DNA of 21,274 bases from Didymodactylos carnosus (Eukaryota). The notes under the pieces were generated by a model that did no database searches, was not told where the DNA came from, and saw only the letters and a list, made by a program, of their open reading frames with translations. A program made the position numbers and the translations under genes. The stretch is taken from positions 1 to 21,274 of the forward strand of contig CAJNOQ010003136.1 in assembly GCA_905250885.1 (NCBI GenBank), in the 5' to 3' direction. Below are positions 1,054 through 17,030 of the stretch, piece after piece (the first letter of the stretch is position 1; the number at the start of each line of letters is the position of its first letter).

Positions 1054-1190
1054 GTAGTCCAATTAAATCTGGTCCTGTGGTTAAATCGAAAATCGATATT
1101 ACCAAAATAAAAGTATGGAATTATGATGATATCAATTTGCCAACATTTGATGAAATAAATGCTGAAATTGCAAAATGGGCAATATTTAAA
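1054..1190 (+). CDS. Possible PARP4-like exon (C-terminal end of BRCT region; ...KSKIDITKIKVWNYDDINLPTFDEINAEIAKWAIFK). Exon limits and phase uncertain
   Basis: Acceptor ctttttag at 1052-1053, donor GTATTC at 1191. KIKVWNYDD resembles human PARP4 RLLDVKNYDP at the end of BRCT. Not phase-reconciled with the next exon. Confidence 0.3.
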
Positions 1191-1449
1191 GTATTCAGCA
1201 TCAGTTTTTGTTTATTCTTCAGTTACAACACGTTTTCTTTATAGGAAACGAATGATAATTCATTTGTTTATTTTGTCTTGGAAATACAAGTTATACCAGA
1301 TAATCGAATGACCGTTACAAGTGAACATCGAATACGATTTCGTTATGAAAAACAGATGTTTTCAACAGATCAAGTATGTTAACATGCCTATAATAAAACT
1401 TATATATTTGTGTGTCTTTCTTCATTTCTGATCAAAAACGAAAAAATAG

Positions 1450-1589
1450 TTCAATACATGTACAGTGATGATGTGAATGAACAGGAACAATTATTTTCAT
1501 CGTATTACTATCGTATTGCAACAATGCCTCGTATAATAAAAATCAAAGACATGTTACCAAATCATATCGGTTCCAAATCACTTGTTCGG
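1450..1589 (+). CDS. Possible PARP4-like exon (QYMYSDDVNEQEQLFSSYYYRIATMPRIIKIKDMLPNHIGSKSLVR), inter-domain region
   Basis: Acceptor aaaaatag at 1447-1449, donor GTACGT at 1590. Open frame. Weak similarity to the PARP4 region between BRCT and the helical domain. Upstream junction unresolved. Confidence 0.35.
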
Positions 1590-1687
1590 GTACGTCGCTT
1601 TCTTCCACTGTTTCGCGAAACGTGCTGTTATGTACATTTGTATATTGTAGTTATTATGGTGTCATAAGATTGATACACAATCAATAG

Positions 1688-1788
1688 ATGATAGCATTGG
1701 TCAATTAGTTGAATCAATATGGTTAGAATCAGTTGGTGATCTAAAAGAGTTGTTGAGTGTTCAACCAGAAACAATAACAGTGAAAAAT
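1688..1788 (+). CDS. PARP4-like exon (DSIGQLVESIWLESVGDLKELLSVQPETITVKN). An alternative acceptor at 1650 would extend it 5' to 1651 and leave only a 43-bp intron
   Basis: Acceptor caatag at 1686-1687 (or tattgtag at 1649-1650), donor GTAAGA at 1789. Matches human PARP4 SQEVSDLVEMIWAEALGHLEHML. Confidence 0.55.
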
Positions 1789-1977
1789 GTAAGAGAAAGA
1801 CGAGGAAAAAGCTTTTCTACGCTTTGAGTAGGCTTGGACTTCCTGGTTATAGAAGAACAGATAAAGCAGCTTATAGTGCACTCGAGAGGGGGCATCCAAC
1901 GTTGAGGAATTCTAACTGACTAACAAGGTCCTTCAGACTCAATTTATGTATCTTAGTGTTTTAAATTGTTTATTTAG

Positions 1978-2151
1978 ATTATCGAAGCTGAAGCTGTTCT
2001 ATTGGAGCAAAAGCGTTTCTTAGATAATAATGCGAATGATGTATCAGTTGAAATCAATGCCAAATTTTATTCACTTATTCCACACAATTCGCTGTTTGTA
2101 TTGGATTTAAATAATCGACGTGTACTACGTGAAAAAATGGATCTGTGTCAA
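1978..2151 (+). CDS. PARP4-like exon, PARP alpha-helical regulatory domain (IIEAEAVLLEQKRFLDNNANDVSVEINAKFYSLIPHNSLFVLDLNNRRVLREKMDLCQ)
   Basis: Acceptor tatttag at 1975-1977, donor GTAAAG at 2152. The FYSLIPH motif is a hallmark of the PARP helical domain (FYTLIPH in PARP1, FYRLIPH in PARP4). Phase 0 continuity with the 1688-1788 exon. Confidence 0.8.
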
Positions 2152-2317
2152 GTAAAGTTTAACTTTATTCTTTCATCTGTAAAAAGGGGGATAAAAATTT
2201 CAGATTTTCAACAATTTTTCCCTTTACAAATTTTCACTCCTTGTTCTTCTTCAGAAGAAGAATTTATAGGAAGAGTTACACAAAAACATACTTTTCTTTT
2301 TGCTTTGTTCGGAGTAG

Positions 2318-2481
2318 ATGTTGCGTGATATGTTAACTGTCAATGAAATAACAAATTGGAATGTAAAAGCCTCCACTGAAGCTAAATATCGTTCGCTGAA
2401 ATGTTATATAAATACGATGGACAAAGATTCATTGGAATTTAGAAAACTTAGTGATATGATTCATTTATCATCCACAGATTC
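2318..2481 (+). CDS. PARP4-like exon (MLRDMLTVNEITNWNVKASTEAKYRSLKCYINTMDKDSLEFRKLSDMIHLSSTD-S)
   Basis: Acceptor ggagtag at 2315-2317 after a pyrimidine tract, donor GTATGT at 2482, ends in phase 2. AKYRSLKCYI matches human PARP4 AKYRALRCKI. Confidence 0.75.
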
Positions 2482-2542
2482 GTATGTATTCTGTGTGTAA
2501 TAACAAAAACGACACAATCACGACTATGATTTTATGTTACAG

Positions 2543-2680
2543 AAATGAACAAGTAATTATTCATAATATATTCGAAGTGACTAGACAAACGGAAGTAATT
2601 AATTTTCAAACAACATTACATAATCAATGTCAACTCTTTCATGGTTCAAAATACAGCAATTTTCTTGGTATTTTATCAAG
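2543..2680 (+). CDS. PARP4-like exon, start of the ADP-ribosyltransferase fold (NEQVIIHNIFEVTRQTEVINFQTTLHNQCQLFHGSKYSNFLGILS-R)
   Basis: Acceptor ttacag at 2537-2542, donor GTAATT at 2681, phase 2 in and out. Contains the catalytic H-G-S motif (LFHGS...NFLGILS compare LLWHGSR..NFAGILSQG of PARP1). Confidence 0.85.
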
Positions 2681-3114
2681 GTAATTTACTTCAATGAATT
2701 TTTTAACGAACCTTAGGGTCATGTAAATGACCCAAAATAGGACGTGTACAATCCCCAAGTCAACACTATTGCCGTAGTCATGCCACGAGCACGCTTATCA
2801 CGACATGATGGCTATAGATTTGCTTACTCATGTGGCGATTGCTATAAAATTTTGATGTCACTTTGCGATCGCGATATATTCTTACTATTAGGGTTTTCCA
2901 TGAACATGGAAACACGCTCTCCTCTCTTAGAAACACGTTACTTATGGCAAGTAATATTAAGGTTTCAGTAGCTTGCAGACCCAGGTTGATTACAACTAAC
3001 TTAGTTCTCTTTTTAGTTCTCTTTGAAACCATGGTCTATTCTTTTGTGATGATGATAGCGAATAATTTGAGAAGAGTTCCATATGTTTACGCTGATAATT
3101 TTTTATTTTTGTAG

Positions 3115-3213
3115 AGGTTTGTTAATGCCAAAAATAATTGTTAATGAAATGGGAAATACAAGAACTGATGTCGGACATTTAGGTTATGGTTTGTACTTTT
3201 CAGATTCAGTGAG
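3115..3213 (+). CDS. PARP4-like exon, catalytic domain (R-GLLMPKIIVNEMGNTRTDVGHLGYGLYFSDSV)
   Basis: Acceptor ttttgtag at 3111-3114, donor GTAATA at 3214. GYGLYFSDS is equivalent to GKGIYFADM of PARP1 (nicotinamide-stacking Tyr). Phase 2 to phase 2. Confidence 0.85.
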
Positions 3214-3275
3214 GTAATATATTTTTATGGTAATAGCGTACTTTAATCTTATCGTTTCTCTATGTGTTGTTTTAG

Positions 3276-3459
3276 TACGTCTTTGCAGTACACAAATAAA
3301 AGTGATCAAAACAGGAAGCGTTTATTGTGTATATGTCAAGTGGCTCTTGGTGACAGTGCGAATTACTACTCATATGCATGTGATTTAACGCAAGCACCGG
3401 AAAATTATCATAGTGTTCATGGTGTTAAAATGACAAATGAAAATCATTCAGTATTTGAA
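3276..3459 (+). CDS. PARP4-like exon, catalytic domain (S-TSLQYTNKSDQNRKRLLCICQVALGDSANYYSYACDLTQAPENYHSVHGVKMTNENHSVFE)
   Basis: Acceptor ttgttttag at 3271-3275, donor GTAATT at 3460. LCICQVALGD compare LLLICDVALGK of human PARP4. YHSVHGV compare YDSVHGV. Confidence 0.85.
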
Positions 3460-3533
3460 GTAATTTTTTTGTCTTATCCTCTGATAATATATTATGTATC
3501 ATTCATTAATTCTAATTTTCTTTTCTTGTACAG

Positions 3534-3690
3534 GATAATGAGTTTGTCATTTATAATCTTGATCAACAACGTCTTCTCTATTTGGTGGAAGTTTCATGGC
3601 ATCCACATGATGTCATTTCAAATATTCCCATCACAAAATTACCAATTATATGGGATCAAATGGCAGAGCGGCAACTATCAACAATAGAAA
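3534..3690 (+). CDS. PARP4-like exon, end of catalytic domain carrying the catalytic Glu (DNEFVIYNLDQQRLLYLVEVSWHPHDVISNIPITKLPIIWDQMAERQLSTIE-)
   Basis: Acceptor cttgtacag at 3531-3533, donor GTAAAA at 3691, ends in phase 1. NEFVIYN compare NEYIVYD of PARP1 and DEFVVYK of PARP4. The H-Y-E triad is therefore complete. Confidence 0.85.
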
Positions 3691-3749
3691 GTAAAACTTT
3701 GGTTCTTACTACTGAGATCATCCTTATATTTTCAAATTATTTTTTTTAG

Positions 3750-3877
3750 TACCAGAACTAATTGAAGACGAAGTAATACAGATCGCTGAACAAGATTATG
3801 GTCTTATTACTTCTGGTCGACGTTTGCCATTGAAACAATTTCATATTCGAGCACAATTAATTGATATTACCGCCGAA
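3750..3877 (+). CDS. PARP4-like exon, start of VIT domain (PELIEDEVIQIAEQDYGLITSGRRLPLKQFHIRAQLIDITAE)
   Basis: Acceptor ttttttttag at 3747-3749, donor GTAAAT at 3878. Phase 1 in, phase 0 out. Confidence 0.8.
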
Positions 3878-3937
3878 GTAAATAGTTAATGTTTTTATAT
3901 TAAATAACGTCGGTTGTTTGAAATTCTCATATTGCAG

Positions 3938-4156
3938 GTTGTACTGTATCAATTGTTTCATAATAATAATTCGCAATCAATAGAAGCCAAATATGTTTTC
4001 CCACTTGATGAACATTCAACCGTTTGTGGTTTTGAAGCACATGTTAACAACAAGGTCATCATCGGTGTGGTTAAAGAAAAAGAGCAAGCTAAAAAAGAAT
4101 ATAGGGAGGCAATTGAAAAAGGTCACGGTGCTTATTTAATGGATCAAGAACAACCG
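3938..4156 (+). CDS. PARP4-like exon, VIT domain core (VVLYQLFHNNNSQSIEAKYVFPLDEHSTVCGFEAHVNNKVIIGVVKEKEQAKKEYREAIEKGHGAYLMDQEQP)
   Basis: Acceptor atattgcag at 3935-3937, donor GTATAT at 4157. Near-diagnostic VIT signature: human PARP4 has IEAKYIFPLDDKAAVCGFEAFINGKHIVGEIKEKEEAQQEYLEAVTQGHGAYLMSQDAP. Confidence 0.9.
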
Positions 4157-4224
4157 GTATATTCATGAAAATAAAAAATAATAAATAGAATTGAACCATC
4201 CATAATACTTTCTTTTTTATCTAG

Positions 4225-4389
4225 GAAGTATTCAGCGTGTCCGTCGGAAATTTACCACCCAATTGTGAAGTTGTTATTAAAATTACTTATGTCCAAGAAT
4301 TGCCAATTGAAAATGATGATGTGATGTTTCGCTTACCAGCAAAAGTAGCCGATTGGCAATCGAAAATGGCCATTGAACATCACGACCAA
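4225..4389 (+). CDS. PARP4-like exon, VIT domain (EVFSVSVGNLPPNCEVVIKITYVQELPIENDDVMFRLPAKVADWQSKMAIEHHDQ)
   Basis: Acceptor tttatctag at 4222-4224, donor GTGCGT at 4390. Human DVFTVSVGNLPPKAKVLIKITYITEL. Confidence 0.85.
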
Positions 4390-4704
4390 GTGCGTTTTCT
4401 CTTCATAAACGACCTAAGCAAGGGATGAAATTCAAAACCAATAAAGATAGCCACTGTTTTTGAGAGAAAGACAATTAAACTATATGTCATCAAAGCAGAA
4501 GTTCTTATAATAGTTTACCATTAAACTCATAGATATTTCACGTGCGTTTTGAGATTATCAAATGTCCTAGAAATTCGGGTTAATGTAGATCTACAGCTTT
4601 AAAACGTGCTGGAACTCTAATCTAGTTTACAGACGCTAAAAGATAAAAATGCGTAGAATTTTTGACCATTTATACGACTGGATTCATATTATTTTTTGTT
4701 TTAG

Positions 4705-5547
4705 ACTATACTACCATCAATTGGAATGACATCAACAACTGATTCAAATCAAATTCAATTTAGCTTAAAAGCCACCGTACAAATGCCATACTCAATAAAA
4801 AAACTATTTTCACCAACACATCGTCTTCGTCGAAAGGTAACCGATTGTCAAGCAATGATTGAATTAATTGATAATATTTTTGATAAAGATTTTATTTTAA
4901 CAATCACATTGCAAACAATTCATATTCCTCGTATGTTAGTTGAAACATATAAATCAGATTCAGAATCAAAAGCTTGTATGTTAACATTTTATCCTGAATT
5001 TGATTTTGAAACAACACAAGTCACAATTGAAATTATTTATTTAATCGATTCATCAAATTCGATGGATGGAAAAACGATGAAACAAGCGAAACAGTTGGCA
5101 CATCTTTTTCTGTCAAATATGATAAGTTCCACCAATAAAAATAACAACATTTTATTTAATATTGTTACATTTGGCTCAGATAATGATGAATGTTTTCCTG
5201 TGTCTGTTCCATTAATAAAAGAAAATTTAGACAAAGCAAAACATTTTGTTCTTCATTCATTGAGTCATCGTGGTAATACAGATCTGTTTTCTGTTCTTCG
5301 AAATTATTCATTATTATCTGGTAGAGGAGAACGTAATTTTATTTTATTATCCGATGGTCATCTGAATGATATGAAAGCTATTATTTTGTTGTTAAAACAG
5401 CAGCAAATGAAACATGATCGATTTTTTACATGTTCTATTAGTGAAACAGCTAATAAACATAACCTGAAACAATTAATTAGTTGTACAAGTGGTGGGGGTC
5501 AATCAACAGTATTCGATACTAACTATCGTTCGAAATGGAAAATAAAA
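4705..5547 (+). CDS. PARP4-like large exon: end of VIT plus the complete von Willebrand factor A domain with an intact MIDAS motif (IIYLIDSSNSMDGK ... NIVTFGSDND ... FILLSDGHLND)
   Basis: Acceptor ttgttttag at 4702-4704, single open frame of 281 codons. DxSxS (DSSNSM), T (VTFGS) and D (LLSDG) of MIDAS are all present. SPTHRLRRKVTDCQAMIEL compare human SDTHELKQKRTDCKAVIST. Proposed 3' donor GTAGAA at 5548 is weak but gives KWKIK/VLNILESIRQP. In-frame stop at 5560-5562 if unspliced. Confidence 0.8.
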
Positions 5548-5617
5548 GTAGAAACAGAATGAAACTTAAAAAGTTTCTTAACTTTTACAACACTTTTTCT
5601 CCTTCGTTTTGTTGTAG

Positions 5618-5797
5618 GTATTGAATATTTTAGAAAGTATTCGTCAACCATGCGTCAACGGGATTGTTATTGATTGGCATAACGAACAATTAGATGAAAA
5701 TAACAATCTGCAATTTCTTCAAGCACCATCACATATACACTCACTGTTTAACGGTCAACGTCTAACAATTTATGGTTTTATTAATAACTGCTATAAA
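5618..5797 (+). CDS. PARP4-like exon (VLNILESIRQPCVNGIVIDWHNEQLDENNNLQFLQAPSHIHSLFNGQRLTIYGFINNCYK)
   Basis: Acceptor ttgttgtag at 5615-5617, donor GTAAGA at 5798. Human PARP4 has QAPAQVPSLFLNDRLLVYGFIPHCTQ. Confidence 0.8.
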
Positions 5798-5999
5798 GTA
5801 AGAAGAATGCTAAAAAGTAAAATTAACTAATATCACACTTCCTCAAAACCTAAAAGATGCCTGACTCCTCTCTTTTGATACACTGTTACGACTATTTAAC
5901 TGCATCAATGTGACAGATTTGTCCGTAACATTTCTGAGATATAAAAAGCGATGAACCTTAAATGCTATCTCAACTTTTTATTAAAAGTAATAATGAAGA

Positions 6000-6580
6000 C
6001 TATTACCGTTTAAAAAAAAGAAAGGCAGGTGGGTAGATTGCTTATAACTTTTAAAGGGAAAGAGCTAGAGACATGCGGTCTTCACCGTTGGATAGAGAAC
6101 ATCAGAGAACGTAGGCGTATGTGAAAACTGGGCCTCCAGGTAAGGTTTATCATGGCAAACCTTTCGATGCAAAGTCTACGAGACCGCCGTTCCAGGACAG
6201 TACGATGGATTTTGATTTTCAAACAGTGCAATGGATAGCTCAAACCGAGATCTACAATTCTAGACCGGTCTTAACTCTCTATCTCTTAAGATTCAAGAGT
6301 TATAAGCACTTTTACGAGCGCTCCGATTTCGGTTAGTTGACCTTGAGTGATCTTAAGATAGGTCAAGATAGAGGTATTCGGCAACGCTGAGTCGAGCGAT
6401 GATGTTTATTTTTGATTGCAAACCAACCTATAGTCACTAAATAAAAATTTCGAAATATCCACTCTATACGCAACATAGCGGTAGAATGCTTTAATTTGAA
6501 AATCCGCATGTCTCTAGCTCTTTCCCTTTAAAAGTTATAAGCAATCTACCCAGCTGCCTTTCTGTCTTAAAACGGTAATA
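6000..6580. mobile_element. MITE-like non-autonomous DNA transposon (about 581 bp) with roughly 80-bp terminal inverted repeats, inserted in a PARP4 intron
   Basis: Left end ctattaccgtttaaaaaaaagaaaggcaggtgggtagattgcttataacttttaaagggaaagagctagagacatgcgg (6000-6078) is the reverse complement of the right end ccgcatgtctctagctctttccctttaaaagttataagcaatctacccagctgcctttctgtcttaaaacggtaatag (6504-6580) with few mismatches. No transposase-length ORF inside. Confidence 0.7.
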
Positions 6581-6869
6581 GAGCTGGTACCCGGCAACAC
6601 ATGACCGAGTCTAACTTAACAGAATCACACATCACGACCCTGTTTGTTCTTGATTTATCTAACAATGTACTGCTCGTCGCCGTAGTCCTTCCTTCTCATC
6701 GTGGATAAAAGGAGGAGCAGGATAGTGCTTATGTAAGCCTGTGAGATTCAGACTCAATATGTTTGACCACTGCGCAAACAGTTTACGTGTCATCATCAAA
6801 TCATTAATTTCAAAAAGACGATTTTTCTTTAAATCAACTAAGTATTGTTCTTTTCTGTCTTGTTTAAAG

Positions 6870-7068
6870 GCAACACTAAAAGCAAATGTTAATGGATGTG
6901 AATTGACAACGACTGTATTTACAAATAAAATGACTGAAACAACAGGAAAAATTCTACATTGTCTGGCAGCTCGAGCAATTATTGATGATTGGGAAAATGG
7001 ATTGGTGAATATGGACGATATAGAGAATGAAGTAAATTTTTTCTTTCCAATTAAAAATAGTAGTAAAG
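6870..7068 (+). CDS. PARP4-like exon (ATLKANVNGCELTTTVFTNKMTETTGKILHCLAARAIIDDWENGLVNMDDIENEVNFFFPIKNSSK-)
   Basis: Acceptor ttgtttaaag at 6867-6869. KILHCLAARAII matches human MIHKLAARALI. Donor chosen at 7069 (GTGCAA, phase 1) because only this phase joins the next exon. A stronger consensus donor GTAAAT at 7032 exists but is phase-incompatible. Confidence 0.6.
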
Positions 7069-7151
7069 GTGCAACACATTATAGTTTTGTGTTTAGCTGA
7101 TAAAATCTCACTTTAAACAACATATTATTGATCTGAGTATAAAATATTCAG

Positions 7152-7220
7152 TCGTTAGCCCATTTACAAGTTTCATTGCCATCGAAGAAAGGGATAAAGA
7201 CGATAAATTTACACATGAAG
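7152..7220 (+). CDS. PARP4-like exon (V-VSPFTSFIAIEERDKDDKFTHE-G)
   Basis: Acceptor atattcag at 7149-7151, donor GTGAAT at 7221. FTSFIAIEERDKDD compare human FTSFVAVEKRDENE. Phase 1 to phase 1. Confidence 0.65.
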
Positions 7221-7287
7221 GTGAATATTGAATGATTCATCCTTCACTTATGAACAGCCGATTACAGTCACTCTTTTTTTGTTTTAG

Positions 7288-7367
7288 GTGTTCAACTGTT
7301 AGATATTATGTTAGAAAAAGACATAGATGTATTACCATACGTTGGATGGGATGGCGAAAAATCGCAG
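7288..7367 (+). CDS. PARP4-like exon (G-VQLLDIMLEKDIDVLPYVGWDGEKSQ)
   Basis: Acceptor ttgttttag at 7285-7287, donor GTATAT at 7368. DIDVLPYVGWDGE compare human EDVDFLPYMSWQGE. This motif is specific to PARP4 rather than the paralog VWA5A. Confidence 0.75.
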
Positions 7368-7702
7368 GTATATGAAAAGTTTGAGAAACGTTCGCTGAAC
7401 GTTCACGTGTTCATTTTTTCCCAACGCTCGTCCTGTATGATGACTGTCGAGCGACTCACGCTTTCATCGTGAAAATAGGCTTTCAAATCACTTTTCCAAA
7501 TCTACACGGGAGCGTTCTGCGTTGGCTCAGGTACTTTCCTCAATCAGTTTCAACCAGTAGCAGAAGAAATTTATCACCATTGAATTCAGTCTCGAGCAGG
7601 ACTTCCGATTTGAAGTATTGTCCGAGAAGTGTTAATAACTACTGGACTTACAAAGCTTTTTTTATGTAATCCGTATAATTTTTCATTTTATTTCACTTTT
7701 AG

Positions 7703-7928
7703 TCAGTCTCAATAAAAGAACAATTAATTGATTCAAAAAAACAATTGGATTCATCGTCTGTAACAGAGAAAATTCGATTATGTCCGGAACTTATTTCCTT
7801 ATGTAAAAATGTTTCATATCGACAATGCTATGAAAAATTTGATACAATGTTAACGTTGATTGATACATATTATTATACATTAAAAAATCAAGAACAAGCT
7901 ATCGAACTTCTGAAGCAAATGAAATTCG
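7703..7928 (+). CDS. Tentative PARP4 exon (SVSIKEQLIDSKKQLDSSSVTEKIRLCPELISLCKNVSYRQCYEKFDTMLTLIDTYYYTLKNQEQAIELLKQMKF-)
   Basis: Acceptor cacttttag at 7699-7702, donor GTAATT at 7929. Open and phase-compatible (0 in, 1 out), but no counterpart in the human protein. Could be a lineage-specific insert or a false exon, since 7367 can also join 8527 directly in frame. Confidence 0.3.
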
Positions 7929-7999
7929 GTAATTATATAATTCAAAATACTCTAAAGTTTTTCTACTTTTTTGGTGTTCTCTTTTTCGTTCGTATCTAG

Positions 8000-8090
8000 A
8001 TGTTAAATTGGAAATGGAAACGGCATCCTCTGAAGAACGTACGCAAATGGAAAGTCGTTTGAATTCAATGAAATATTTGTTTGATGAAAT
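8000..8090 (+). CDS. Tentative PARP4 exon (D-VKLEMETASSEERTQMESRLNSMKYLFDE-); runs into an in-frame TAG at 8092-8094 if the weak donor at 8091 is not used
   Basis: Acceptor cgtatctag at 7997-7999. The donor GTAGTT at 8091 is weak. Either a terminal exon of a short isoform (stop 8092-8094) or an internal exon. Confidence 0.3.
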
Positions 8091-8152
8091 GTAGTTAAAA
8101 TACTGTGTTGAGAATATTACACATAATCCTACATGCTTTAACTCTGTTTCAG

Positions 8153-8252
8153 GTTGGAAAAAGAAGAGCTCGATCTTTCTGTGTTAGAGTCGGAATCCAA
8201 AGTAAGAGTGTGGACATTAGGAGAGACTGCAAAAGAAATTACTAAAGAAGCA
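8153..8252 (+). CDS. Tentative PARP4 exon (M-LEKEELDLSVLESESKVRVWTLGETAKEITKEA)
   Basis: Acceptor ctctgtttcag at 8149-8152, donor GTACTT at 8253. Phase chain with neighbours is consistent, but an internal GTAAGA at 8202 competes. Confidence 0.3.
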
Positions 8253-8308
8253 GTACTTTCAGATTTCGAAAAAGGAAATAAAACTCGTTACTTACACATT
8301 TATTTTAG

Positions 8309-8389
8309 GAAAGTAGTATGACGCTGAATGCTTTTAGTACAAATTTAACGTGGCAAAATGATCTATTTGATGTAACGCCAGCATTGATG
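8309..8389 (+). CDS. Tentative PARP4 exon (ESSMTLNAFSTNLTWQNDLFDVTPALM)
   Basis: Acceptor ttattttag at 8305-8308, donor GTAAGA at 8390, 27 codons, phase 0 to phase 0. Confidence 0.35.
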
Positions 8390-8526
8390 GTAAGAATAGT
8401 TTTGTTTCAAGTAGTATAAAATGATATAATCGAAGGACTCATTCAGCCTAATGCAAGAAACCTTGATATTCGATCCATAATTAGTTGTTGTTTATTTGCT
8501 ATTACGATTTTCCAACTTTTTTCTAG

Positions 8527-8821
8527 CCACCAGAGATACAAATGGACAGTAAGACAATGGAAATGTATGCACGACAATTGAGAGAAGCAGCAGCCGTCCC
8601 ACTTCCTGACGAAGACGACGATCTCGAGGGTGGTATAGGCTGGGACGTGTTTACTGGTGGAATGACGCCTACATCGGTGGATCTTCTGGAAATGAACGAT
8701 GCCTGTTCCCTAAGTGATGTCGGAAACAAAAGAGACGAAAGAAAAAAAGGGAAGAAAAAAACGGAAGAAAAATATCGGGATGGTACCAGTCCCAGCAATA
8801 GAATGAACAAACTTCAGACAG
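8527..8821 (+). CDS. PARP4-like exon, acidic segment (PPEIQMDSKTMEMYARQLREAAAVPLPDEDDDLEGGIGWDVFTGGMTPTSVDLLEMNDACSLSDVGNKRDERKKGKKKTEEKYRDGTSPSNRMNKLQT-)
   Basis: Acceptor ttttttctag at 8523-8526, donor GTGTGT at 8822 (alternative GTACCA at 8783, same phase). EDDDLEGGIG...VDLLEMNDAC compare human PARP4 EDFEEDGLGV...VEKLLDLSWTESC. GC-richer than the introns. Ends in phase 1, matching the acceptor at 10750. Confidence 0.65.
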
Positions 8822-8930
8822 GTGTGTTAGGTATTGTAAATATTTTACGAGCAAATCTTGCAGAAGTCTTGGAGCGGTGTTGGTGTAGCCCATTTTGGTA
8901 GTTCCCATTTTAAAAAGCTCGTAGTTCAGT

Positions 8931-9740
8931 GAAACATAATTGTCGAAACGTTCTTCTTGCACAGTTTGAGTCAATGATATGTGATTAAAGTTTGATGAAA
9001 ATTGATGAGAGAGGTTTTTTAACCTATTAGTTTGTAATTAATTAATATTGGTTTCCTTGCCAAAATAGGAAAAGTATGGATAGTTTTTGAACAGGGAAAG
9101 TGATAAAGACCTCCTGGCTTCATCTACCGAGCCAAGACTCTGATGCATCTTTTGATGAAAAAGTAAGTTTGTAACTCTTTTCACAAATTAAGATTCTGAA
9201 AGAATCGTTGGAAAACCTGTTATACTTCAAAATTTTGTGATAGACCTGTAATTGTTTTTCTTTCATGGATGGACAGTCCAAAGCATTCTCTCGAAATGGA
9301 GAGCAGACAAGGTGTTCACCTTTAGTTGTTTAAGCCTGGTATTGGATTTTCTCTGTGAGACTGGTGCCTCAAGACTGGTACCTGATGACTTTCAGGTAGA
9401 TCAAAAACAACTGGAATATAGGTGATCGAGTACGCTGAGTCTTCTGGTGATGTTTATATTCCGAAGAAGGTTGAAGAACTCACTAAAATCTATTTTCTCT
9501 GAAATATACAGTTTTTGGCTAATTTTACGTAATACTAAAACCTTCAAAAACTAGTTTATCACTTTCCCTGTGAACGTTATTCAAAAACTATCCATGCTTT
9601 TCCTATTTTGGCAAGGAAACCAGTATTAATTAATTACAAACTAATAGGTTAAAAAACCTCTCTCATCAATTTTCATCAAACTTTAATCACATATCATTGA
9701 TTCAAACTGTGCAAGAAGAACGTTTCGACAATTATGTTTC
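8931..9740. mobile_element. Foldback-type element: 810-bp unit with about 175-bp near-perfect inverted arms around a 430-bp GC-richer core, in a PARP4 intron
   Basis: Left arm 8931-9105 (gaaacataattgtcgaaacgttcttcttgcacagtttgagtcaatgatatgtgattaaagtttgatgaaaattgatgagagagg...ggaaaagtatggatagtttttgaacagggaaagtgataaa) is the reverse complement of 9556-9740 (tttatcactttccctgtgaacgttattcaaaaactatccatgcttttcc...cgtttcgacaattatgtttc), with one 9-bp indel. Confidence 0.7.
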
Positions 9741-9866
9741 AATTATGTTTCACTTTTATGCTATTTGATTGTACTTCAACTAATATCATAATAGTAAATT
9801 ATCTTTAAAACCTATTTCGGCTGCTTATGTGCCGGTTGAATTCATACTAATTTTGAAAAAATACGA

Positions 9867-10374
9867 GTGGGTATTTTTTGAATAACTTTTGACAGAAGCA
9901 AGATAGAGAGCTGCGGTTTTCACCGTTGGAAAGAAGAGCTGAAGACGCATCGAATCATATATCATAGATTTTCTTGATTTGTTCCTTGTAAGGTTTTCAA
10001 TTGACCTTTTTAAGAACAAATATATTTGATAAGTTGTTTACATTGAATTTTCAATTATCAAGTGTAAATTCAACCCACTAATCGAAGATCTACAAAGTGC
10101 GGAAGGTTGAGATGAATAATATGCATTTTAGTAGAGCTTCTAATAGAATTTTCTAGCAAAATCTGTGAAAAAAGCTCACTTTTGTGCTTTTTCCTTTTTT
10201 CAGAAAAAAAAAACATTTTTTCGACACTTAGAAAATTGCACAAAAATACTTCAGAAATCAATATTAGAAAAGCCTATAATATATGATTCGACGCATCTAC
10301 ATTTTCTCGCTCCAACGGTGAACACCGCAGCTCTCTATCTTGTTTCTATGAAAAGTTATTCAAAAAATACTCAC
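9867..10374. mobile_element. Second MITE-like element (about 508 bp) with 95-120-bp terminal inverted repeats, related to the 6000-6580 element
   Basis: Left gtgggtattttttgaataacttttgacagaagcaagatagagagctgcggttttcaccgttggaaagaag...gcatcgaatcatatat is the reverse complement of right atatatgattcgacgcatc...ctccaacggtgaacaccgcagctctctatcttgtttctatgaaaagttattcaaaaaatactcac. Shares the internal core GCGGT(C/T)TTCACCGTTGGA with element 6000-6580. Confidence 0.7.
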
Positions 10375-10749
10375 TAGCATTCATGGAACCGTGACACATG
10401 CGAACAAAACAGATTTTATCAAAATTTTATTATTCTTATATTAGTTGAAGTATGATCAAATAGCATAGAAAAATAGAGCTTTTTTTTCTCTATCAGACTA
10501 CATAAAAAGAAAATTTCTTAAAGTCTACTTTGGAAGAAAAAATTGGAACTCTCACTACTTTTGGTATGCTCTTAGTACTTACCTGTTCAGCGAAAAAGTT
10601 TAAGGACAGTCAGATGTTCTCTTCAAACCGACAAGGACGGATTTACGTATAGGGGTGGATGAACTCGCACTTGAAAAACTTCGTTTATTTTCTAAAAAGA
10701 CAAGCTGTCACGCTTATATCTGTTTCTTGTTAATTTCTTCTCTAATTAG

Positions 10750-11382
10750 AGCATATAACCGCATTATCACCTGCTAGTAGCGGACCATTCTTAAACTCAG
10801 CAGAACAATCGCGTGAAGCTGATGAATCTGGAAATGGAGAAGAATTTGATTTACTTGATAGTATAGAACTATGCGTTCTCCCCACAATATCAATAACTCC
10901 ACAGCAACAAACATATTCTACATCAGTCTCTGGTTTTTCTCCTGCAACGCCATATGTATCTTCAAAAAGCGCCGCTAAAAAACAGAAAGCTGTTTTCTCG
11001 TCTACGTCAGAATTAACATCATCAACATATTTTCCAACTTCGCCAACATATTCTCCAACTTCGCCAACATATTCTCCAACTTCGCCTACTTACAGCGCAA
11101 CACAATATGAAAATTGTCCGTATACAGCCGATTGTGATCTCATGCTGAACCGGACGCCTGCTACACTAGTATTTGGTACTAATGATAGAGACAATACCAG
11201 ACCTGTTTATACTCCAAATTTCCCATCAGTACCATTGATGTCAACCACCACATCTTCACCGTTTCTATTTGGTGCATCATCCGTAGAAACAACAGCCCCA
11301 TCTTTCGGATCCGCTGCAGCGGCAGCTCCTCAGCTACAATCATTCGGTTTCTCTTCTCCTAATCAACAACAGCCGCCTCAGT
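10750..11382 (+). CDS. PARP4-like exon, low-complexity S/T/P-rich linker with three YSPTSPT heptads and FG motifs (E-HITALSPASSGPF...TYFPTSPTYSPTSPTYSPTSPTYSATQYENCPYTADCD...PFLFGASSVETTAPSFGSAAAAAPQLQSFGFSSPNQQQPPQ-)
   Basis: Acceptor tctaattag at 10747-10749, donor GTGAGT at 11383. A 211-codon open frame with no ATG until 11142 indicates an internal exon. APSFGSAAAAAPQLQSF compare human PARP4 VASFGSAAPPRQFDASQF. Phase 1 in and phase 1 out fit both neighbours. Confidence 0.65.
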
Positions 11383-12194
11383 GTGAGTACCAAAGAGAAT
11401 TCTATTTCTATTTTTTTGTAAAGCTGATAATCCCAATTTGAGTATGTATGAGTGAAAAGCTTTTACGTCGAACTATTTGAGGAATAATTTTCGGTATTTT
11501 TTTGCAATTTTATTCTTCTCTCCCGTGCGAAATTTCTGTCTCATATACCTATAAATTCAATACCGATTCTGCAAGCTCGATCTTCACAAAAACTATTCTT
11601 TTTACGGTATAGGTGTTTTTATTATTTGAACACTATGCCATGCCTTCACATATGCAAATAAAGGAAAAGAAATTCTCGAATAAAGATTACTACGATTTAT
11701 ACGAACGATGGTAAAGCATCATTTTTAAGAGCGACTTAGCTGAGTCCGAGAGGTTTGATGAGTTATTCTTGAAATACAGCAGTACCAGCAGCATAAATAT
11801 AATATATTCACCGAAATAATTTAAATTTTCTTCTTATCATCCGCTAGTCCTGGGAAAGTGCCAAAAGCGTCATTCTATCCTTAGTTTTAAAAAAGTCAAT
11901 AAAAAAGCAGTTCAAGCTAAACTGGGAAAGATTATCTTTTACTTGTCGTCCATTTGTGAGCAGTATTATTTATCGAACAAGTTTACATTCAATGAATACA
12001 TGTAAACATTAGGACAGTAGCTAGGATTTCGCTAACGAAAATATACAGTGATCGAGATATGATCGGGATTTTCCGAGAAGGGATTGTTCATAAAAAATTG
12101 AAGTCTGGAGAATTGTACATGCAAAACTGCAGTGACGCTCGGATGAACCTGAATTTATTGGTCGTTATTCTTCTTTTTGAATTTTTTTGTCCAG

Positions 12195-12535
12195 TATTTC
12201 CTGTTCAAAGTCCACAATCATTCGGCTCAACGACAACTTTATCGATGGATTATCAGCCAAAACAAATGGTAACAAAACAAAATCGTGGAGCTCAAAGACA
12301 TTCAAAGAAAATGTCCACGGTTGAAATAAACCAAGGGACTGAACAATACCAACGACAAGCAATGCCTCCAGCACCACAAATGTCAGATTTAAATAAATCA
12401 ATACAAGCAGCAGGATACTTTCCCTCCTTATTTGAAAACGAGTCATTCTATGACAAGTCGTCGGCAGCATCTACATCTTTATTGGGAAAAATAAAAAATG
12501 TTGTTACGTCAGGAATTAGCAGCCTTGGGTTTACG
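12195..12535 (+). CDS. PARP4-like exon, linker (L-FPVQSPQSFGSTTTLSMDYQPKQMVTKQNRGAQRHSKKMSTVEINQGTEQYQRQAMPPAPQMSDLNKSIQAAGYFPSLFENESFYDKSSAASTSLLGKIKNVVTSGISSLGFT)
   Basis: Acceptor ttttttgtccag at 12191-12194, donor GTAAGA at 12536 (perfect consensus). Phase 1 in matches exon 10750-11382. The frame stays open to 12733 if unspliced. Confidence 0.55.
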
Positions 12536-12559
12536 GTAAGATACAGATCTATGTTGGAG

Positions 12560-13400
12560 GAAGTAATGATGCCTGCTGAGATGAGACGAGCACGGGAAGA
12601 GGCTCATTCAAGCCCTAAGGTTTTGGTTACTGGCGGTAGGACGGAAAGCTTCACCTTTAGTGCAGAAGATACTAATATCCGTTCCGAAATACAGTGGAGT
12701 CTCATTTATTCAACAACTAACCATGTTAACTAGAGTGATGAGACGTTCAAAGACTGGTAGCCCACTGTCTAAGCTATCGGAATGACCAAATTTATACTTG
12801 AAATTCATTGAATCTACATGGTTTAGCGATCAATTCCTTGAGAGATAGATGAAACACGCCACCTACCGGCGGTGGTTCGGCTTGACTTTTCATATCATTT
12901 CATAGCAAAAAAGTATTGTCTTTTTAGTGGTAAAAACGCATGGTTTTATCTAGGCCTGCACCGGTTACCTTATCGGAACCCTCAGAGTAGTAGTTTTAAA
13001 AATCAGAGAAAACTTTAAAAAAATTTTTGTCAGGAGTCTCGATAAGTAATTTTCTCTACAAATAATAACTGAGTATGGCATTTATCTGTAGTCAAGACAA
13101 AACATGCAATTGCAACAAGGTGGCGAGGACTTCCAACGAGGACTTTCACCAAGATCAGTGAGCTCAAGAAGGGGCGGCTTTTCGGAATTAGAACGTGGGA
13201 GAGGAGCAATGTCTAATAAAGGAAAACAAGCTGCGCACGCCGCCCGGTTTACTGATGTAAGTAATATTCTATTTAACAATAGAAAAATATATTACTTAAG
13301 CCATTCGTAAATCGTTCAGTTATGCTGCGGAGCCAGTTTACAGAGAATTTAGTTGAAATAAACGCAGACAGCAGCGGCTCGGCAACGAAGTTTTGCATAC
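12560..13400 (+). pseudogene. Colinear, frame-disrupted remnants of an Hsp70 nucleotide-binding (ATPase) domain; GC-richer than the flanking sequence
   Basis: In Hsp70 order: PKVLVTGGRTESFTFSAEDTNIRSEI (about 12640-12715; compare [24 protein letters not shown]), DETRHLPAVVRLD (about 12850; weak match to NEPTAAAIAYGLD), QQGGEDFQRGL (13118-13150; compare HLGGEDFDNRL), ISELKKGRLFGIRTWERS in the +2 frame (13155-13210; compare ISENKRAVRRLRTACER), RSQFTENLVEINAD (13325-13365; compare RARFEELNADL). Spacing is roughly as in Hsp70. Stops and frame changes lie between the pieces. No GIDLGTTYS or DLGGGTFD motif found. Confidence 0.35.
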
Positions 13401-13823
13401 GGAACGAACGTTATAGTCTATGTACTCTTCATCCTAAATATCATGTCGGTTTCGTACTATTGTAGACAAGAGCAGACGAACAGGCTCGAAGTTGTCACAG
13501 TCCTGTTCCACTTCCAGATTTAGAAACAGACTCACCACCATTGCAATCAATCGTACAAAGGTCGTACGTATGAAAAGTCAAATGAAAGAAAAGAAATTGA
13601 TTGTTTTCTCTTTTAATTTAGTGAGAACGAATTGTCTTCGTTGACAGAAACCAGAAAAGCTAATAAAAGCGCCAGCAAAGGATACTTACACAAGACCGAT
13701 GCTCTAAGATCGAAAAAGAATTTACTACCACCACCACAAGAAGAAGAACAGAAAGTAGTAATAAAATATGAATAGACTGTTAGCAAACATTAAAAAAATA
13801 TTCGTTATTGTTTTCACTTTTAG

Positions 13824-14033
13824 TATCATGTTAATATTTGTGATCTATTATTGTTAGACGTTGCACCATTATCTTTGGGAATTGAGCTAGTGAGCGGTGA
13901 ATATGTAGCCGTTATCCAACGAAATACAACAATACCAACAAAAAATTGGGCTATATTTACAAATGCATTTGCTGGTCAAACAACAGCTACAGTTAAAATT
14001 TTTGAAGGTGAACATCGATTAACAAAATATAAT
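13824..14033 (+). CDS. Hsp70-family substrate-binding domain, exon 1 ([70 protein letters not shown])
   Basis: Acceptor cacttttag at 13821-13823, perfect donor GTAAGT at 14034. Canonical Hsp70 linker plus beta-sandwich motifs [16 protein letters not shown] and KRNTTIPTK. Phase 0 to phase 0. Confidence 0.8.
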
Positions 14034-14945
14034 GTAAGTTGTTTTTCAAAATTTTCTTTATCTGGAAGAGAATTAGGTAAGCTCATTTTTCTAGTTCAAA
14101 TTGGCCTAAAGCTCTTTTCAAATTAACAGACCCTTCACTCAACAGAAGACCAACATATCCAAATTTTAGCAAAAAGTGTTATTCTCTTGATCCTTTTTTT
14201 CGGTCAACAAATTTATTCGAATGTTGATCTTTTTTTTTCCATAAGAAATTATCAGAATTTTATCTCCTCCCTTTCAGCAGTTATGAACCCATAAAGCAAC
14301 CAAAGTGAGAGCAAGTGGGAGTTTCTGATGTTACAGGATTCTTTCTTCAAAGAGAACATAGTTGTGAATTATTGATGTGTGCGCCAGAACCATAACTGTG
14401 GCTGATTTTTTTGCTTAATTTTAGTATGCGCTTTACTTACAAAAACCCAAAAATACGTATCGACTTTCTTAGAAACTTGTTTTCATAAAAAAAACTGATG
14501 TTTAACGTCAGAATTCGTCTTTGTTACTCTCCATAATGAGAAAAACTTCGCTAATTGATTTTGAGGAAAGGCTGTTTAAGCCGTGAATAGGTGCAGACAA
14601 AAAATCCGTTCGGCGGCAAAGAAAGTTCGGAAGCAAAGAAATATTAACCAAGTTTTGAAGCGTATAACTTCCGATCTAAACATCCTTTCACAATTGCTGT
14701 CCGAACTCCTATTTCAAAGAGAAATGTGTGATTTGTTTTGGAAAGAGATAAAGGTATAATCTACATGTCACAGTTAAATCTCTCAAGAAAATCCTGGATT
14801 TTAACGGGAGGGGGAAGTTTACAGCAAAATAAGGCTTTTAACCGACTCTATCTGACAAAGACATTGTTAAATCTTTCTATCGTTAATGCGTCTCTTATCG
14901 ATTCTTATGACTAAATGAAAAAAACGTTTTTGTGTTTTACTGTAG

Positions 14946-15105
14946 AATTATTTGGGTGAGTTTACACTTGAAAAACTGTCCAAAAATTTTGCTTCTGAAA
15001 CATTGAACATAACTATTACTATGGATATCGATGCTAATGGAATATTAAACGTTACTGCCGAAGAACAAGCATCGCGAGTGAAAAAGTCAATTGCAATAAC
15101 AGATG
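14946..15105 (+). CDS. Hsp70-family substrate-binding domain, exon 2 ([54 protein letters not shown])
   Basis: Acceptor ttttactgtag at 14941-14945, donor GTAAAT at 15106. [37 protein letters not shown] of canonical Hsp70 aligns residue for residue. Confidence 0.85.
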
Positions 15106-15179
15106 GTAAATTGAAGACTTGTTTCAAGCGTTTTGTAGCCAATGTTAAAAAAGAAATTATCTTTTTTTTCCTCATTTAG

Positions 15180-15254
15180 ATAAAGGTCGTCTGACACGCG
15201 ATTTTATTGAGCAACATGTACGTTTTGTAGAAAGTTTACCATCTGCTGATCACG
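15180..15254 (+). CDS. Hsp70-family exon 3 (D-DKGRLTRDFIEQHVRFVESLPSADH-)
   Basis: Acceptor ctcatttag at 15176-15179, donor GTAAGA at 15255. ITxDKGRLSxEDIE is the conserved Hsp70 SBD-to-lid junction. Phase 1 to phase 1. Confidence 0.75.
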
Positions 15255-15332
15255 GTAAGAACGACATAAACTGTATATACTGAAAGTTGGTTTATAAAAC
15301 TTCTTATATAAGAGTTCTTTTCTTCTTTCTAG

Positions 15333-15361
15333 CAATCCGTGATCGTTCGAACAAACTAATG
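15333..15361 (+). CDS. Possible Hsp70-family micro-exon (A-IRDRSNKLM)
   Basis: Acceptor ttctttctag at 15329-15332, donor GTGGGT at 15362. Phase 1 to phase 0. Short and therefore uncertain. Confidence 0.35.
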
Positions 15362-15456
15362 GTGGGTGATTGCTAGATTTTTGCCTCACTAAAATTGCCT
15401 CAGTTCTGCAAGTTAGACTTTTTGATGCATTAATGTGTTTTTTTGGTTTCTTTCAG

Positions 15457-15514
15457 CTTGATGGTAAAACAAACTTCCATCCATACAATTTTTCAGCAAA
15501 TGATATATCGATTA
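15457..15514 (+). CDS. Possible exon (LDGKTNFHPYNFSANDISI-) that either terminates an Hsp70-like ORF at TAG 15517-15519 or, via the weak donor GTTAGT at 15515, joins PARP4 exon 15580
   Basis: Acceptor ggtttctttcag at 15451-15456. Only a weak donor is available. The frame hits a stop 3 nt after the proposed donor. Confidence 0.25.
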
Positions 15515-15579
15515 GTTAGTAAAATTGTTATTTTCTTGAGCCAGAAATCCTGCATTTCGTCTTTTCGTTACTCTACCAG

Positions 15580-15665
15580 ATTCGTCGACACCATTACTTG
15601 ATCAGATGCACCGCAGAATGATGACAGCTGAATTAATCGACAGTATATTTCAACTTCAGAATGAT
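15580..15665 (+). CDS. PARP4-like C-terminal module exon (N-SSTPLLDQMHRRMMTAELIDSIFQLQND)
   Basis: Acceptor ctctaccag at 15576-15579, donor GTAAGC at 15666. TAELIDSIFQLQNDDGSF compare human PARP4 TELLSLQTEDGFW. Needs phase 1 from upstream. Confidence 0.6.
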
Positions 15666-15732
15666 GTAAGCTGAACAATACTAACGTCCTCTCTGTTTAC
15701 ACCATATATCCTGTATTTTTCTCACGTTGTAG

Positions 15733-15835
15733 GATGGTTCATTTTCGTTCACCAAAGATCTGCAGGCCATATTCAATAATATTGATTTTGGTATAGTTCA
15801 ACAACATTTAACTGAACAAGGACTAAATTCATTTG
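15733..15835 (+). CDS. PARP4-like C-terminal (MVP-interaction region) exon (DGSFSFTKDLQAIFNNIDFGIVQQHLTEQGLNSF-)
   Basis: Acceptor cgttgtag at 15729-15732, donor GTAAGT at 15836. Human EDGFWKLTPELGLILNLNTNGLHSFL. Confidence 0.7.
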
Positions 15836-16032
15836 GTAAGTCTACGAATACATCATTTTTGAGTAGGAACTTTTTTCCATAGAATTTCCATGAAAGGAGG
15901 TCTATAATAGAGATGCAATCGGACCGGGCGCCCCGGGGTGAGGCAAATTCTTTATTCCGAATGAAAAGAAATGCAAAAGGTTCATTGTTCTTATAGAAAT
16001 TACTATCCCGAAAGAGTTCTTGAGGAACGTTT

Positions 16033-16200
16033 GTACCGGTCGCTTACATCAAAATTTTTAGAAAAATAGTCGGTCAACCGGCCGGTACCGGTCATGATTT
16101 TTTTGTTGACCGGTTGTATCTCTAGACTATAAGTGTTGTTGCAATTTATTTCCACCCCATAATGAAGGATCTTAATGTTATGCATTTTTCATCGGATCGC
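16033..16200. repeat. Copy A of an approximately 170-bp dispersed repeat (second copy at 18700-18882, about 88 percent identity), located in a PARP4 intron
   Basis: cgcttacatcaaaatttttagaaaaatagtcggtcaaccggccggtaccggtcatgatttttttgttgaccggttgtatctctagactataagtgttgttgcaatttatttccaccccataatgaagg... aligns with 18712 gcgcttacatcaaaagttttagaaaaatggtcggtcgaccggccagtacttgtcatgatttttttgttgaccggttgcatctctagactataaagtgttgttgcaatttagttccactccataatgaggg. Contains an internal CCGGTCAAC...GTTGACCGG hairpin. Confidence 0.6.
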
Positions 16201-16229
16201 AAGATTTTGATGACTAAAATGTATTTTAG

Positions 16230-16384
16230 CTGAAAAAATCCGCAATGAAATCAATGATTTGATTTGTACAACTGTGATCGTAATTTATATTATCTCGCAA
16301 AGTGAATTATCATTGACATTAACATTTCCACTTGATATTCATTCAATCAGAAATTTAGTTGAACAAATTAAAAATAATGGCAAG
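16230..16384 (+). CDS. PARP4-like C-terminal exon (A-EKIRNEINDLICTTVIVIYIISQSELSLTLTFPLDIHSIRNLVEQIKNNGK)
   Basis: Acceptor gtattttag at 16225-16229, donor GTAATT at 16385. DLICTTVIVIYII compare human DLIATMLVLQFIR. Phase 1 in matches 15835. Confidence 0.7.
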
Positions 16385-16452
16385 GTAATTTACTCAATAC
16401 AGAAGATCTTCTTTGTTCTTAAATGTTCCTTTCTTTTGTTTTTCTTAAAAAG

Positions 16453-16647
16453 AAAATTGATCCAATAATGGAAAACTACAGAAGAGAATATGGAATGGCA
16501 TTTGATTATGTTTTAAAAATGCGTGATAAAAATTCAATGTATTGTACACAGTTAGAGTTAGGCTCTACGTGGGAATTATATATTCAAAAAACGTTGCTTG
16601 GCCTTGATAATAGTGGTGATCATGGTATTACTCTAGTTGTACATTAA
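16453..16647 (+). CDS. PARP4-like terminal exon with stop codon (KIDPIMENYRREYGMAFDYVLKMRDKNSMYCTQLELGSTWELYIQKTLLGLDNSGDHGITLVVH*)
   Basis: Acceptor tttcttaaaaag at 16449-16452, TAA at 16645-16647. MAFDYVLKMRDKN...CTQLELGSTWELYIQKTLLGL compare human C-terminus WAFEAIKQASEWV...CPRLELGNDWDSATKQLLGL. Confidence 0.75.
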   Translation, partial: KIDPIMENYRREYGMAFDYVLKMRDKNSMYCTQLELGSTWELYIQKTLLGLDNSGDHGITLVVH

Positions 16648-17004: not shown

Positions 17005-17030
17005 CTCTCTCACTCTCTCTCTCTCTCTTT
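17005..17030. repeat. (CT)n / (TC)n microsatellite
   Basis: ctctctcactctctctctctctctttctttcc read directly. Confidence 0.8.

Follow-up and report, generated by a model that had tools for sequence, protein, structure and literature searches.

An Hsp70-derived substrate-binding domain as a probable internal module of vault PARP (PARP4) in the bdelloid rotifer Didymodactylos carnosus

Introduction

Human and other vertebrate PARP4 (vPARP), a minor vault protein, is built from a PARP catalytic domain, a VIT domain, a vWA domain, a long disordered linker and a helical domain that interacts with the major vault protein (MVP), the MVP-interacting domain (MVPID, or MINT). Lodwick et al. (2025) describe the human MVPID, seen by cryo-electron microscopy, bound to the inner vault wall. 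Accessory modules are known from PARP4-like proteins elsewhere. Perina et al. (2014; PMC4245714) described them mostly in Amoebozoa, a choanoflagellate and Capsaspora, and their paper mentions Hsp70 zero times. Here, we analyze a stretch of 21,274 nt from the bdelloid rotifer Didymodactylos carnosus (the whole of contig CAJNOQ010003136.1; hereafter the window) that holds a PARP4-like gene colinear with the vertebrate ones and, close to its 3' end, exons for an Hsp70 substrate-binding domain (SBD). The genome was reported by Nowell et al. (2021); among the bdelloids sampled there, D. carnosus stands for the deepest split. The window has a G+C content of ~34% and a eukaryotic structure rich in introns.

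A first-pass annotation, made from the sequence alone, had placed the SBD exons inside an intron of the vault PARP gene and offered two explanations: a nested Hsp70 paralog, or SBD exons captured into a chimeric transcript. We consider it very likely that the SBD exons belong to the D. carnosus PARP4 orthologue as constitutive internal exons, numbers 29-31 of at least 35. We are equally confident of the order of the protein: PARP, VIT, vWA, a low-complexity linker of ~850 residues, the beta-sandwich part of the Hsp70 SBD (SBD-beta), a spacer of ~50 residues and the MVPID.

Results

One coding sequence probably runs through the SBD exons

The deposited protein CAF0997286.1 (P0362, also CAF3768889.1; 2098 amino acids), which was annotated ab initio (Nowell et al., 2021), maps onto the window with zero mismatches as 35 exons between positions 1056 and 16647. 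In this exact exon-by-exon map, all junctions have AG...GT sites. Pfam recognizes PARP, VIT, vWA and HSP70 in the product, with VIT and then vWA following the catalytic domain, as in PARP4. A BRCT domain is found in the Adineta vaga orthologue; the D. carnosus model is 5'-partial at the start of the contig. The same structure is present in a second D. carnosus assembly. In addition, a partial D. carnosus protein (P0241) is 95% identical to the spliced C-terminal model and shares a 90% cluster with P0362.

The three SBD exons had been called correctly from the letters alone. Exons 29-31 are flanked by AG/GT sites and, when concatenated, form an open frame that matches the Pfam HSP70 family (PF00012) at positions 381-528 of 599 (E = 9.6e-32), with the end of the match at 526-528. 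All the phases given for these exons were also right, including those of two short exons downstream and of the join to position 15580. The interval 12536-15579, regarded earlier as one intron, needs to be redrawn, as it also holds three coding exons (26-28) that join the exon ending at 12535 to the SBD in frame. Exon 26 is homologous to the stretch 'RGRG...AR(Y/F)CD' of A. vaga and A. ricciae. Across the first junction, the peptide 'RGRG...AARFTD-TRADEQARS' (hyphen at the junction) matches 'RGRG...ARYCDTRSDEASN' in A. vaga, or in short form 'ARFTD-TRADEQ' against 'ARYCDTRSDEA', and a similar stretch occurs in A. ricciae. The exon upstream of the interval (12211-12535 in the GenBank model) had been described as homologous to PARP4; it is low-complexity linker without detectable homology of its own, and counts as PARP4 by its position in the coding sequence only.

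The GenBank model splices position 15254 straight to 15580 and so passes over two microexons. Together, these add 87 nt and preserve the frame. Their joint product, 'LMLDGKTNFHPYNFSAN', aligns with 'YMLDGQTESIMHNFSGE' of Rotaria and Adineta proteins, and the intron before 'L(D/K/G)G' lies at the same position in the Rotaria (L001) and A. vaga (L005) loci. Both microexons, absent from the deposited model, are probably genuine, whether constitutive or alternative.

Beyond the spacer, the protein continues into the MVPID, without an EEVD motif. The first-pass annotation had likened exons 15580-16647 to the C terminus of PARP4, and this proved correct, although the first of these exons ends at 15665 and not at 15667. 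Searched alone against solved structures in the PDB, the MVPID sequence of the window has human PARP4 residues 1576-1706 as its top match (E = 0.023); a family profile that includes fish PARP4 matches human residues 1571-1709 (E = 3.5e-27). The AlphaFold model of the product of exons 32-35 is all-helical. A local Pfam scan left the MVPID undetected in the window and its relatives, so that the profile search against the PDB was needed; the precomputed Pfam list gives PF26156 (PARP4_MVP-ID), flagged weak.

The same architecture occurs in other rotifers and in bivalves

Single proteins with PARP, VIT, vWA and HSP70 (SBD) domains are annotated in three species of Adineta (A. ricciae, A. steineri and A. 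vaga) and four of Rotaria (R. sordida, R. socialis, R. magnacalcarata and Rotaria sp. Silwood1). In A. vaga, the HSP70 domain occupies residues 1899-2088 of 2221. For A. ricciae and three Rotaria species, annotation was guided by RNA sequencing of the same species (Nowell et al., 2021). Oyster and Dreissena PARP4 isoform models (NCBI/UniProt) have the same order, with the SBD directly before the C-terminal domain. In all, about ten species besides D. carnosus have an SBD-bearing structure. Comparison with orthologous loci, which the first-pass annotation had proposed, confirmed that the Rotaria and A. vaga loci hold the SBD exons, with shared intron positions. The A. vaga locus further encodes the SBD-proximal spacer and the start of the MVPID ('LKGDTEST...QLPNGSFD...GFNSF') in one exon.

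Further evidence comes from the 8.4-kb Logan contig SRR23076780_3415. It contains an open reading frame (ORF) of 7,692 nt for BRCT-PARP-VIT-vWA-...-SBD-C-terminal domain, and since this frame is uninterrupted, the contig can only be a spliced transcript. Among the proteins compared, its product is nearest to annelid PARP4. A search of a representative library returned mostly ordinary Hsp70 fragments; the two-domain matches whose source was checked came from Rotaria, Adineta, Didymodactylos and Pinctada only. The single 35-exon coding sequence, the single proteins of rotifers and bivalves and the Logan transcript frame together support the proposal that the SBD is part of a PARP4 product. The accompanying terms "captured" and "new architecture" went too far, as the fusion predates the bdelloid radiation and already stands in GenBank, UniProt and RefSeq models. 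Full-text searches, together with targeted reading of PARP and vault papers that included a 2023 survey of human PARP domains and vault structure papers, turned up neither a PARP4-Hsp70 fusion nor a decoy model. The architecture is thus held in public annotation, yet apparently undescribed in the literature.

The module keeps the beta-sandwich of a cytosolic Hsp70

Judged by its sequence, the inserted module is derived from a cytosolic Hsp70 and has kept the DLLLLD linker, the eight-stranded beta-sandwich and helix A; it has no ATPase domain, no helical lid and no EEVD motif. A tblastn search with an Hsp70 nucleotide-binding domain (NBD; the ATPase) found nothing in the 21-kb window at E up to 10, and a search with the Hsp70 lid likewise found nothing anywhere in the window. 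The family profile matched the SBDs of Hsc70, Hsp70 and DnaK among solved structures, with E down to 7e-53. We also used an AlphaFold model of the deposited version, that is, with the two microexons excluded. The model shows an eight-stranded sandwich and one helix (143-155), with a predicted local distance difference test score (pLDDT) of ~80-90 in the SBD block, and Foldseek superposed it on Hsp70 SBD crystal structures with a root-mean-square deviation of 1.1-1.6 A over 133-138 columns (E = 1e-14 to 1e-17).

At the positions equivalent to human L403, F428, V438, I440, I474 and V476, the D. carnosus module has I, F, A, V, I and I, respectively. Residues that line the pocket are hydrophobic in every PARP4 SBD compared.

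The SBD is conserved between poorly alignable flanks

Between D. carnosus and other bdelloids, the SBD is 54-62% identical. In the same comparison, identity is 0-16% for the 19 residues before the SBD, 0-29% for the spacer after it and 24-34% for the MVPID. The introns after 'TKYN' (the end of exon 29) and before helix A are common to three bdelloid genera, the former being conserved in Rotaria and A. vaga. Since no sampled bdelloid lineage branches off more deeply than D. carnosus, the PARP4-SBD fusion predates the bdelloid radiation. The comparisons support the SBD as an integral, ancient domain of a chimeric protein.

The module is closest to cytosolic Hsp70s (45-51% identity), as against 40% to DnaK. 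In a neighbor-joining tree, with a provisional E. coli DnaK sequence as the outgroup, bdelloid SBDs are monophyletic (100%), and the sister of D. carnosus consists of two paralogue clades of Adineta+Rotaria. A group of all PARP4 SBDs has only weak support (52-57% bootstrap). T405D and, to some extent, V438A are common to rotifers and oysters, as is the position of the SBD before the MVPID; on these characters, a single spiralian origin of the PARP4 SBD is plausible. The protist-like PARP4 relative P0179 has a far more canonical SBD at its end and is without an MVPID, which suggests a separate PARP4-SBD fusion.

A putative peptide clamp at the vault wall, and alternative readings

Because its pocket-lining residues stay hydrophobic, the SBD module would still bind extended hydrophobic peptide segments, a proposal to which we give nearly even chances. 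Without an ATPase domain and a lid, it would act as a nucleotide-independent, fast-exchange clamp that works independently of ATP. Placed ~50 residues from the MVPID, it would be located at the vault wall, by analogy, because the adjoining MVPID binds the inner vault shell in the human structure. There, it could keep client polypeptides, or the disordered linker of PARP4 itself, near the PARP catalytic domain.

Several points weigh against the reading of the locus as one PARP4 gene with a peptide-binding SBD, or against parts of it. First, loop L1,2 and arch residues are altered (T405 to L/D, A406 to V/I and Y431 to A), which could modify or abolish specificity or binding. Second, the relative orientation of the SBD and the MVPID is unreliable in the model (predicted TM-score 0.50). 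Third, peptide binding, vault association and bdelloid vaults are all putative. Fourth, the D. carnosus gene model is ab initio, so that support for the structure in this species is comparative. Lastly, in some models from rotifers and Pinctada, the locus is divided between a PARP-VIT-vWA gene and a separate linker-SBD-MVPID gene.

Another role for the module deserves thought, even if we regard it as unlikely. The SBD might be no working binder and belong instead to a set of "bait" copies, made from conserved host proteins and displayed on the PARP4 tail, where it would act as a decoy for pathogen effectors, as a sensor of them or as a dock for Hsp70 partners. In its broader form, to which we give the same small weight, the vault-tethered tail of invertebrate PARP4 would be an array of such integrated copies of highly conserved host proteins, the rotifer SBD being one of them. 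The candidate baits so far, listed just as tentatively, are the Hsp70 SBD, an actin N terminus, a synaptobrevin SNARE motif, ubiquitin, 14-3-3, an H3-tail-like stretch, heptads like those of the RNA polymerase II C-terminal domain (CTD) and the motif 'DDMGFGLFDD', which is like a P-stalk tail. Pfam finds an actin N-terminal fragment, a synaptobrevin SNARE motif and ubiquitin in related PARP4 linkers, where an H3-tail-like 'RTKQTARKSTGGKAPR', YSPTSPS heptads and a recurring 'DDMGFGLFDD' can be made out by eye. Perina et al. (2014; PMC4245714) reported that 14-3-3, actin and ubiquitin-related domains have been added to PARP4-like proteins, positive selection on the primate PARP4 linker beside the MVPID has also been reported, and the protist-like sequence combines a PARP4-like protein and an SBD in a probably independent fusion. 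This support is purely correlative, however, and the strongly conserved hydrophobic pocket suits a working binder equally well. The two roles may also hold together. Inside the vault, such baits would capture or detect pathogen effectors, or else draw in the natural partners of the copied proteins, for ADP-ribosylation, and the vault would gain a concrete and testable innate-immune or sequestration role analogous to the integrated decoys of plant nucleotide-binding leucine-rich repeat receptors (NLRs).

We find it improbable, more so than the bait idea, that linker, SBD and MVPID alone are the product of a second gene on the same strand, or of an isoform from an internal promoter, for example one starting in exon 26, where an ATG at 13104 is in frame, with the PARP-VIT-vWA gene ending earlier. 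Apart from that ATG and the ab initio status of the D. carnosus model, such a gene is favored by stand-alone models from Rotaria sp. Silwood1 (P0001, 272 amino acids), R. magnacalcarata (P0364, 609 amino acids), R. sordida (P0366, 666 amino acids, several assemblies) and Pinctada (P0377, 742 amino acids). Yet P0364 has 99% identity to the tail (residues 1793-2401) of a fused R. magnacalcarata protein, P0132 (2401 amino acids), annotated in a different assembly, so that the splitting looks like annotation variance, and P0001 terminates by reading through into an intron. Moreover, every upstream exon is open and in phase, the oyster and Dreissena models are annotated as PARP4 isoforms, and the transcript SRR23076780_3415 carries the whole ORF without interruption. 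A separate gene would also deprive PARP4 of the MVPID, which terminates the protein in fish and human. The split models in several rotifer assemblies are probably artefacts; a short isoform may exist in addition to the long one.

The nested Hsp70 paralog of the first-pass annotation fares no better. SBD exon 1 lacks a Met in its frame, and immediately upstream its own acceptor forms an in-frame TAG (13821-13823), so this exon cannot start a protein. A nested gene would again remove the only MVPID of the PARP4 protein. Its proposed stop at 15517 is used only if the donor at 15515 is ignored, and the sequence across this junction is conserved and lies in a single exon in A. vaga. Finally, that the sequence is a decaying Hsp70 fragment (a partial-duplication pseudogene) in non-coding DNA or an assembly chimera, as the fragmentary Hsp70 and the long introns here might suggest, is contradicted by the open frame, the canonical splice sites, the 54-62% identity of the SBD across the deepest bdelloid split with flanks that are unalignable, the second D. 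carnosus assembly and the same structure in about ten other species, and we give it next to no credence.

Other features of the locus

The features of the gene that we take to encode PARP4 with its internal SBD are listed in Table 1. The H-Y-E motif residues of the catalytic domain, assigned by analogy to PARP1, can be read in 'LFHGS', 'GYGLYFSD' and 'EDNEFVIY'.

Table 1. Features of the D. carnosus PARP4 locus, with positions in the window
Feature	Position	Strand	Details
PARP4-like (vault PARP) coding sequence	1056..16647	+	35 exons, CAF0997286.1; 5'-partial, contig begins within gene
PARP catalytic domain, exons 6-10	2318..3690	+	amino acids 267-443 of P0362; PF00644, E = 1.5e-28
VIT domain, exons 11-13	3750..4389	+	amino acids 502-612; PF08487, E = 3.8e-37
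vWA domain, inside exon 14 (4705-5547)	5029..5505	+	amino acids 754-912; Pfam VWA_3 (E = 3.2e-11) and VWA
Low-complexity linker, exons 19-25	7703..12535	+	fast-evolving; acidic stretch, FG-like repeats, three 21-nt repeats
Exon 26, linker, phase 0/0	13092..13256	+	AG/GT; in-frame ATG at 13104; 'RGRG...ARFTD'
Exon 27, linker ('TRADEQARS...')	13466..13563	+	AG/GT; matches A. vaga exon 'RSDEASNAP...'
Exon 28, basic linker, end 'PPPQEEEQK(V)'	13622..13757	+	AG/GT; alternative donor 13754
Exon 29, SBD exon 1, 210 nt	13824..14033	+	interdomain linker DLLLLD and about the first half of the beta-sandwich; no in-frame Met
Exon 30, SBD exon 2, 160 nt	14946..15105	+	rest of the beta-strands
Exon 31, SBD exon 3, 75 nt	15180..15254	+	'(D)KGRLTRDFIEQHVRFVESL', helix A only; Hsp70 match stops here
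Microexon 1, 29 nt, probable	15333..15361	+	'AIRDRSNKLM'; AG/GT sites; not in GenBank model
Microexon 2, 58 nt, probable	15457..15514	+	'LDGKTNFHPYNFSANDISI'; conserved sequence and intron position; not in GenBank model
MVPID (MINT), exons 32-35	15580-15665, 15733-15835, 16230-16384, 16453-16647	+	stop codon TAA

In a tblastx comparison of the linker (8000-13830) with the Rotaria locus, nothing significant was found, which means that the linker is untraceable by similarity at that distance. Within exon 24 (10750-11380), Tandem Repeats Finder reports a 21-nt tandem repeat at 11023-11086 (3 copies, 97% matches) that encodes YSPTSPT heptads. These resemble the RNA polymerase II CTD consensus, and like heptads occur in the Dreissena PARP4 linker. 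An acidic 'DDMGFGLFDD' motif is present in 1-3 copies in the linkers of rotifer, bivalve and Logan PARP4 proteins (P0121-P0130, P0175, P0180 and P0190), and a degenerate 'DEDDDLEGGIGWDVF' at ~8600-8660 of the window is its counterpart. We take the motif to resemble the C-terminal tail that is conserved among ribosomal P-stalk proteins, and two of the proteins that carry it have a listed Pfam PF00428 entry. Between vWA and SBD, the linkers of P0175, P0181 and P0182 (oysters, Dreissena) contain, according to Pfam, actin residues ~5-54, synaptobrevin SNARE residues 17-62 and a full ubiquitin, and an H3-tail-like 'RRTKQTARKSTGGKAPR' can be seen by eye in bivalve PARP4 linkers.

Intron 23 (2 kb) contains an inverted repeat with 162-nt arms that are 98% complementary (8930-9091 and 9580-9741) and a second one with arms of ~210 nt at 73-83% (9754-9972 and 10269-10470). 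Both are probably foldback insertions or insertions like miniature inverted-repeat transposable elements (MITEs). No Rfam family was found in the window, and Pfam gave no match for the downstream ORFs or for the read-through ORF at 12536-12730. On other D. carnosus contigs, a second protein (P0453 / P0529) matches, in two stretches, the MVPID part of the profile and perhaps an SBD remnant; it is possibly the homoeologous copy.

Two observations concern the neighborhood of the gene in other rotifers. In Rotaria sp. Silwood1, a second copy of the PARP-VIT-vWA gene (14497-21144 of locus L001) lies in tandem, ~3 kb downstream of the SBD-MVPID exons. The A. ricciae protein P0121 has a lipocalin/FABP domain after the MVPID. 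As A. vaga has a separate lipocalin gene just downstream (12309-12851 of locus L005), the A. ricciae tail is probably an annotation error that fused two neighbors.

Discussion

Vaults and PARP4 have lacked a settled function for decades, and an SBD beside the vault anchor points to a specific, testable activity: polypeptide segments would be captured without ATP inside the vault, adjacent to an ADP-ribosyltransferase. The SBD has been under strong constraint across the whole history of bdelloids and is also present in bivalves. If it still binds peptides, it would be a rare natural case of an Hsp70 SBD-beta that works with neither an ATPase domain nor a lid. As regards annotation, the deposited D. 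carnosus model lacks two probable microexons, and the split rotifer models are likely artefacts.

How does this protein compare with known systems? Vertebrate PARP4 (e.g., that of Amia, P0199) has the same colinear domains, but no Hsp70-derived module before the MVPID. With canonical cytosolic Hsp70 (HSPA8/HSPA1A), the module has in common the DLLLLD linker, the beta-sandwich, helix A and the hydrophobic pocket. It differs from cytosolic Hsp70 in having no NBD, no lid (SBD-alpha) and no EEVD motif and in its changed loop L1,2 and arch, and is therefore an Hsp70-derived domain and no Hsp70 chaperone. In PARP4 isoforms of bivalves (Magallana gigas X4/X5, Ostrea edulis, Crassostrea virginica and Dreissena polymorpha), SBD-beta lies directly upstream of the MVPID and carries, as in rotifers, T405D and partly V438A. 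Their SBDs are 36-38% identical to that of the window, and their linkers contain extra modules (an actin fragment, a synaptobrevin motif and ubiquitin); a common origin of bivalve and rotifer SBDs has weak support in the tree (57% bootstrap). Lastly, the PARP4-like proteins with 14-3-3, actin and ubiquitin-related domains of Perina et al. (2014; PMC4245714) represent the same kind of change as the rotifer SBD, the addition of accessory modules to a PARP-VIT-vWA core.

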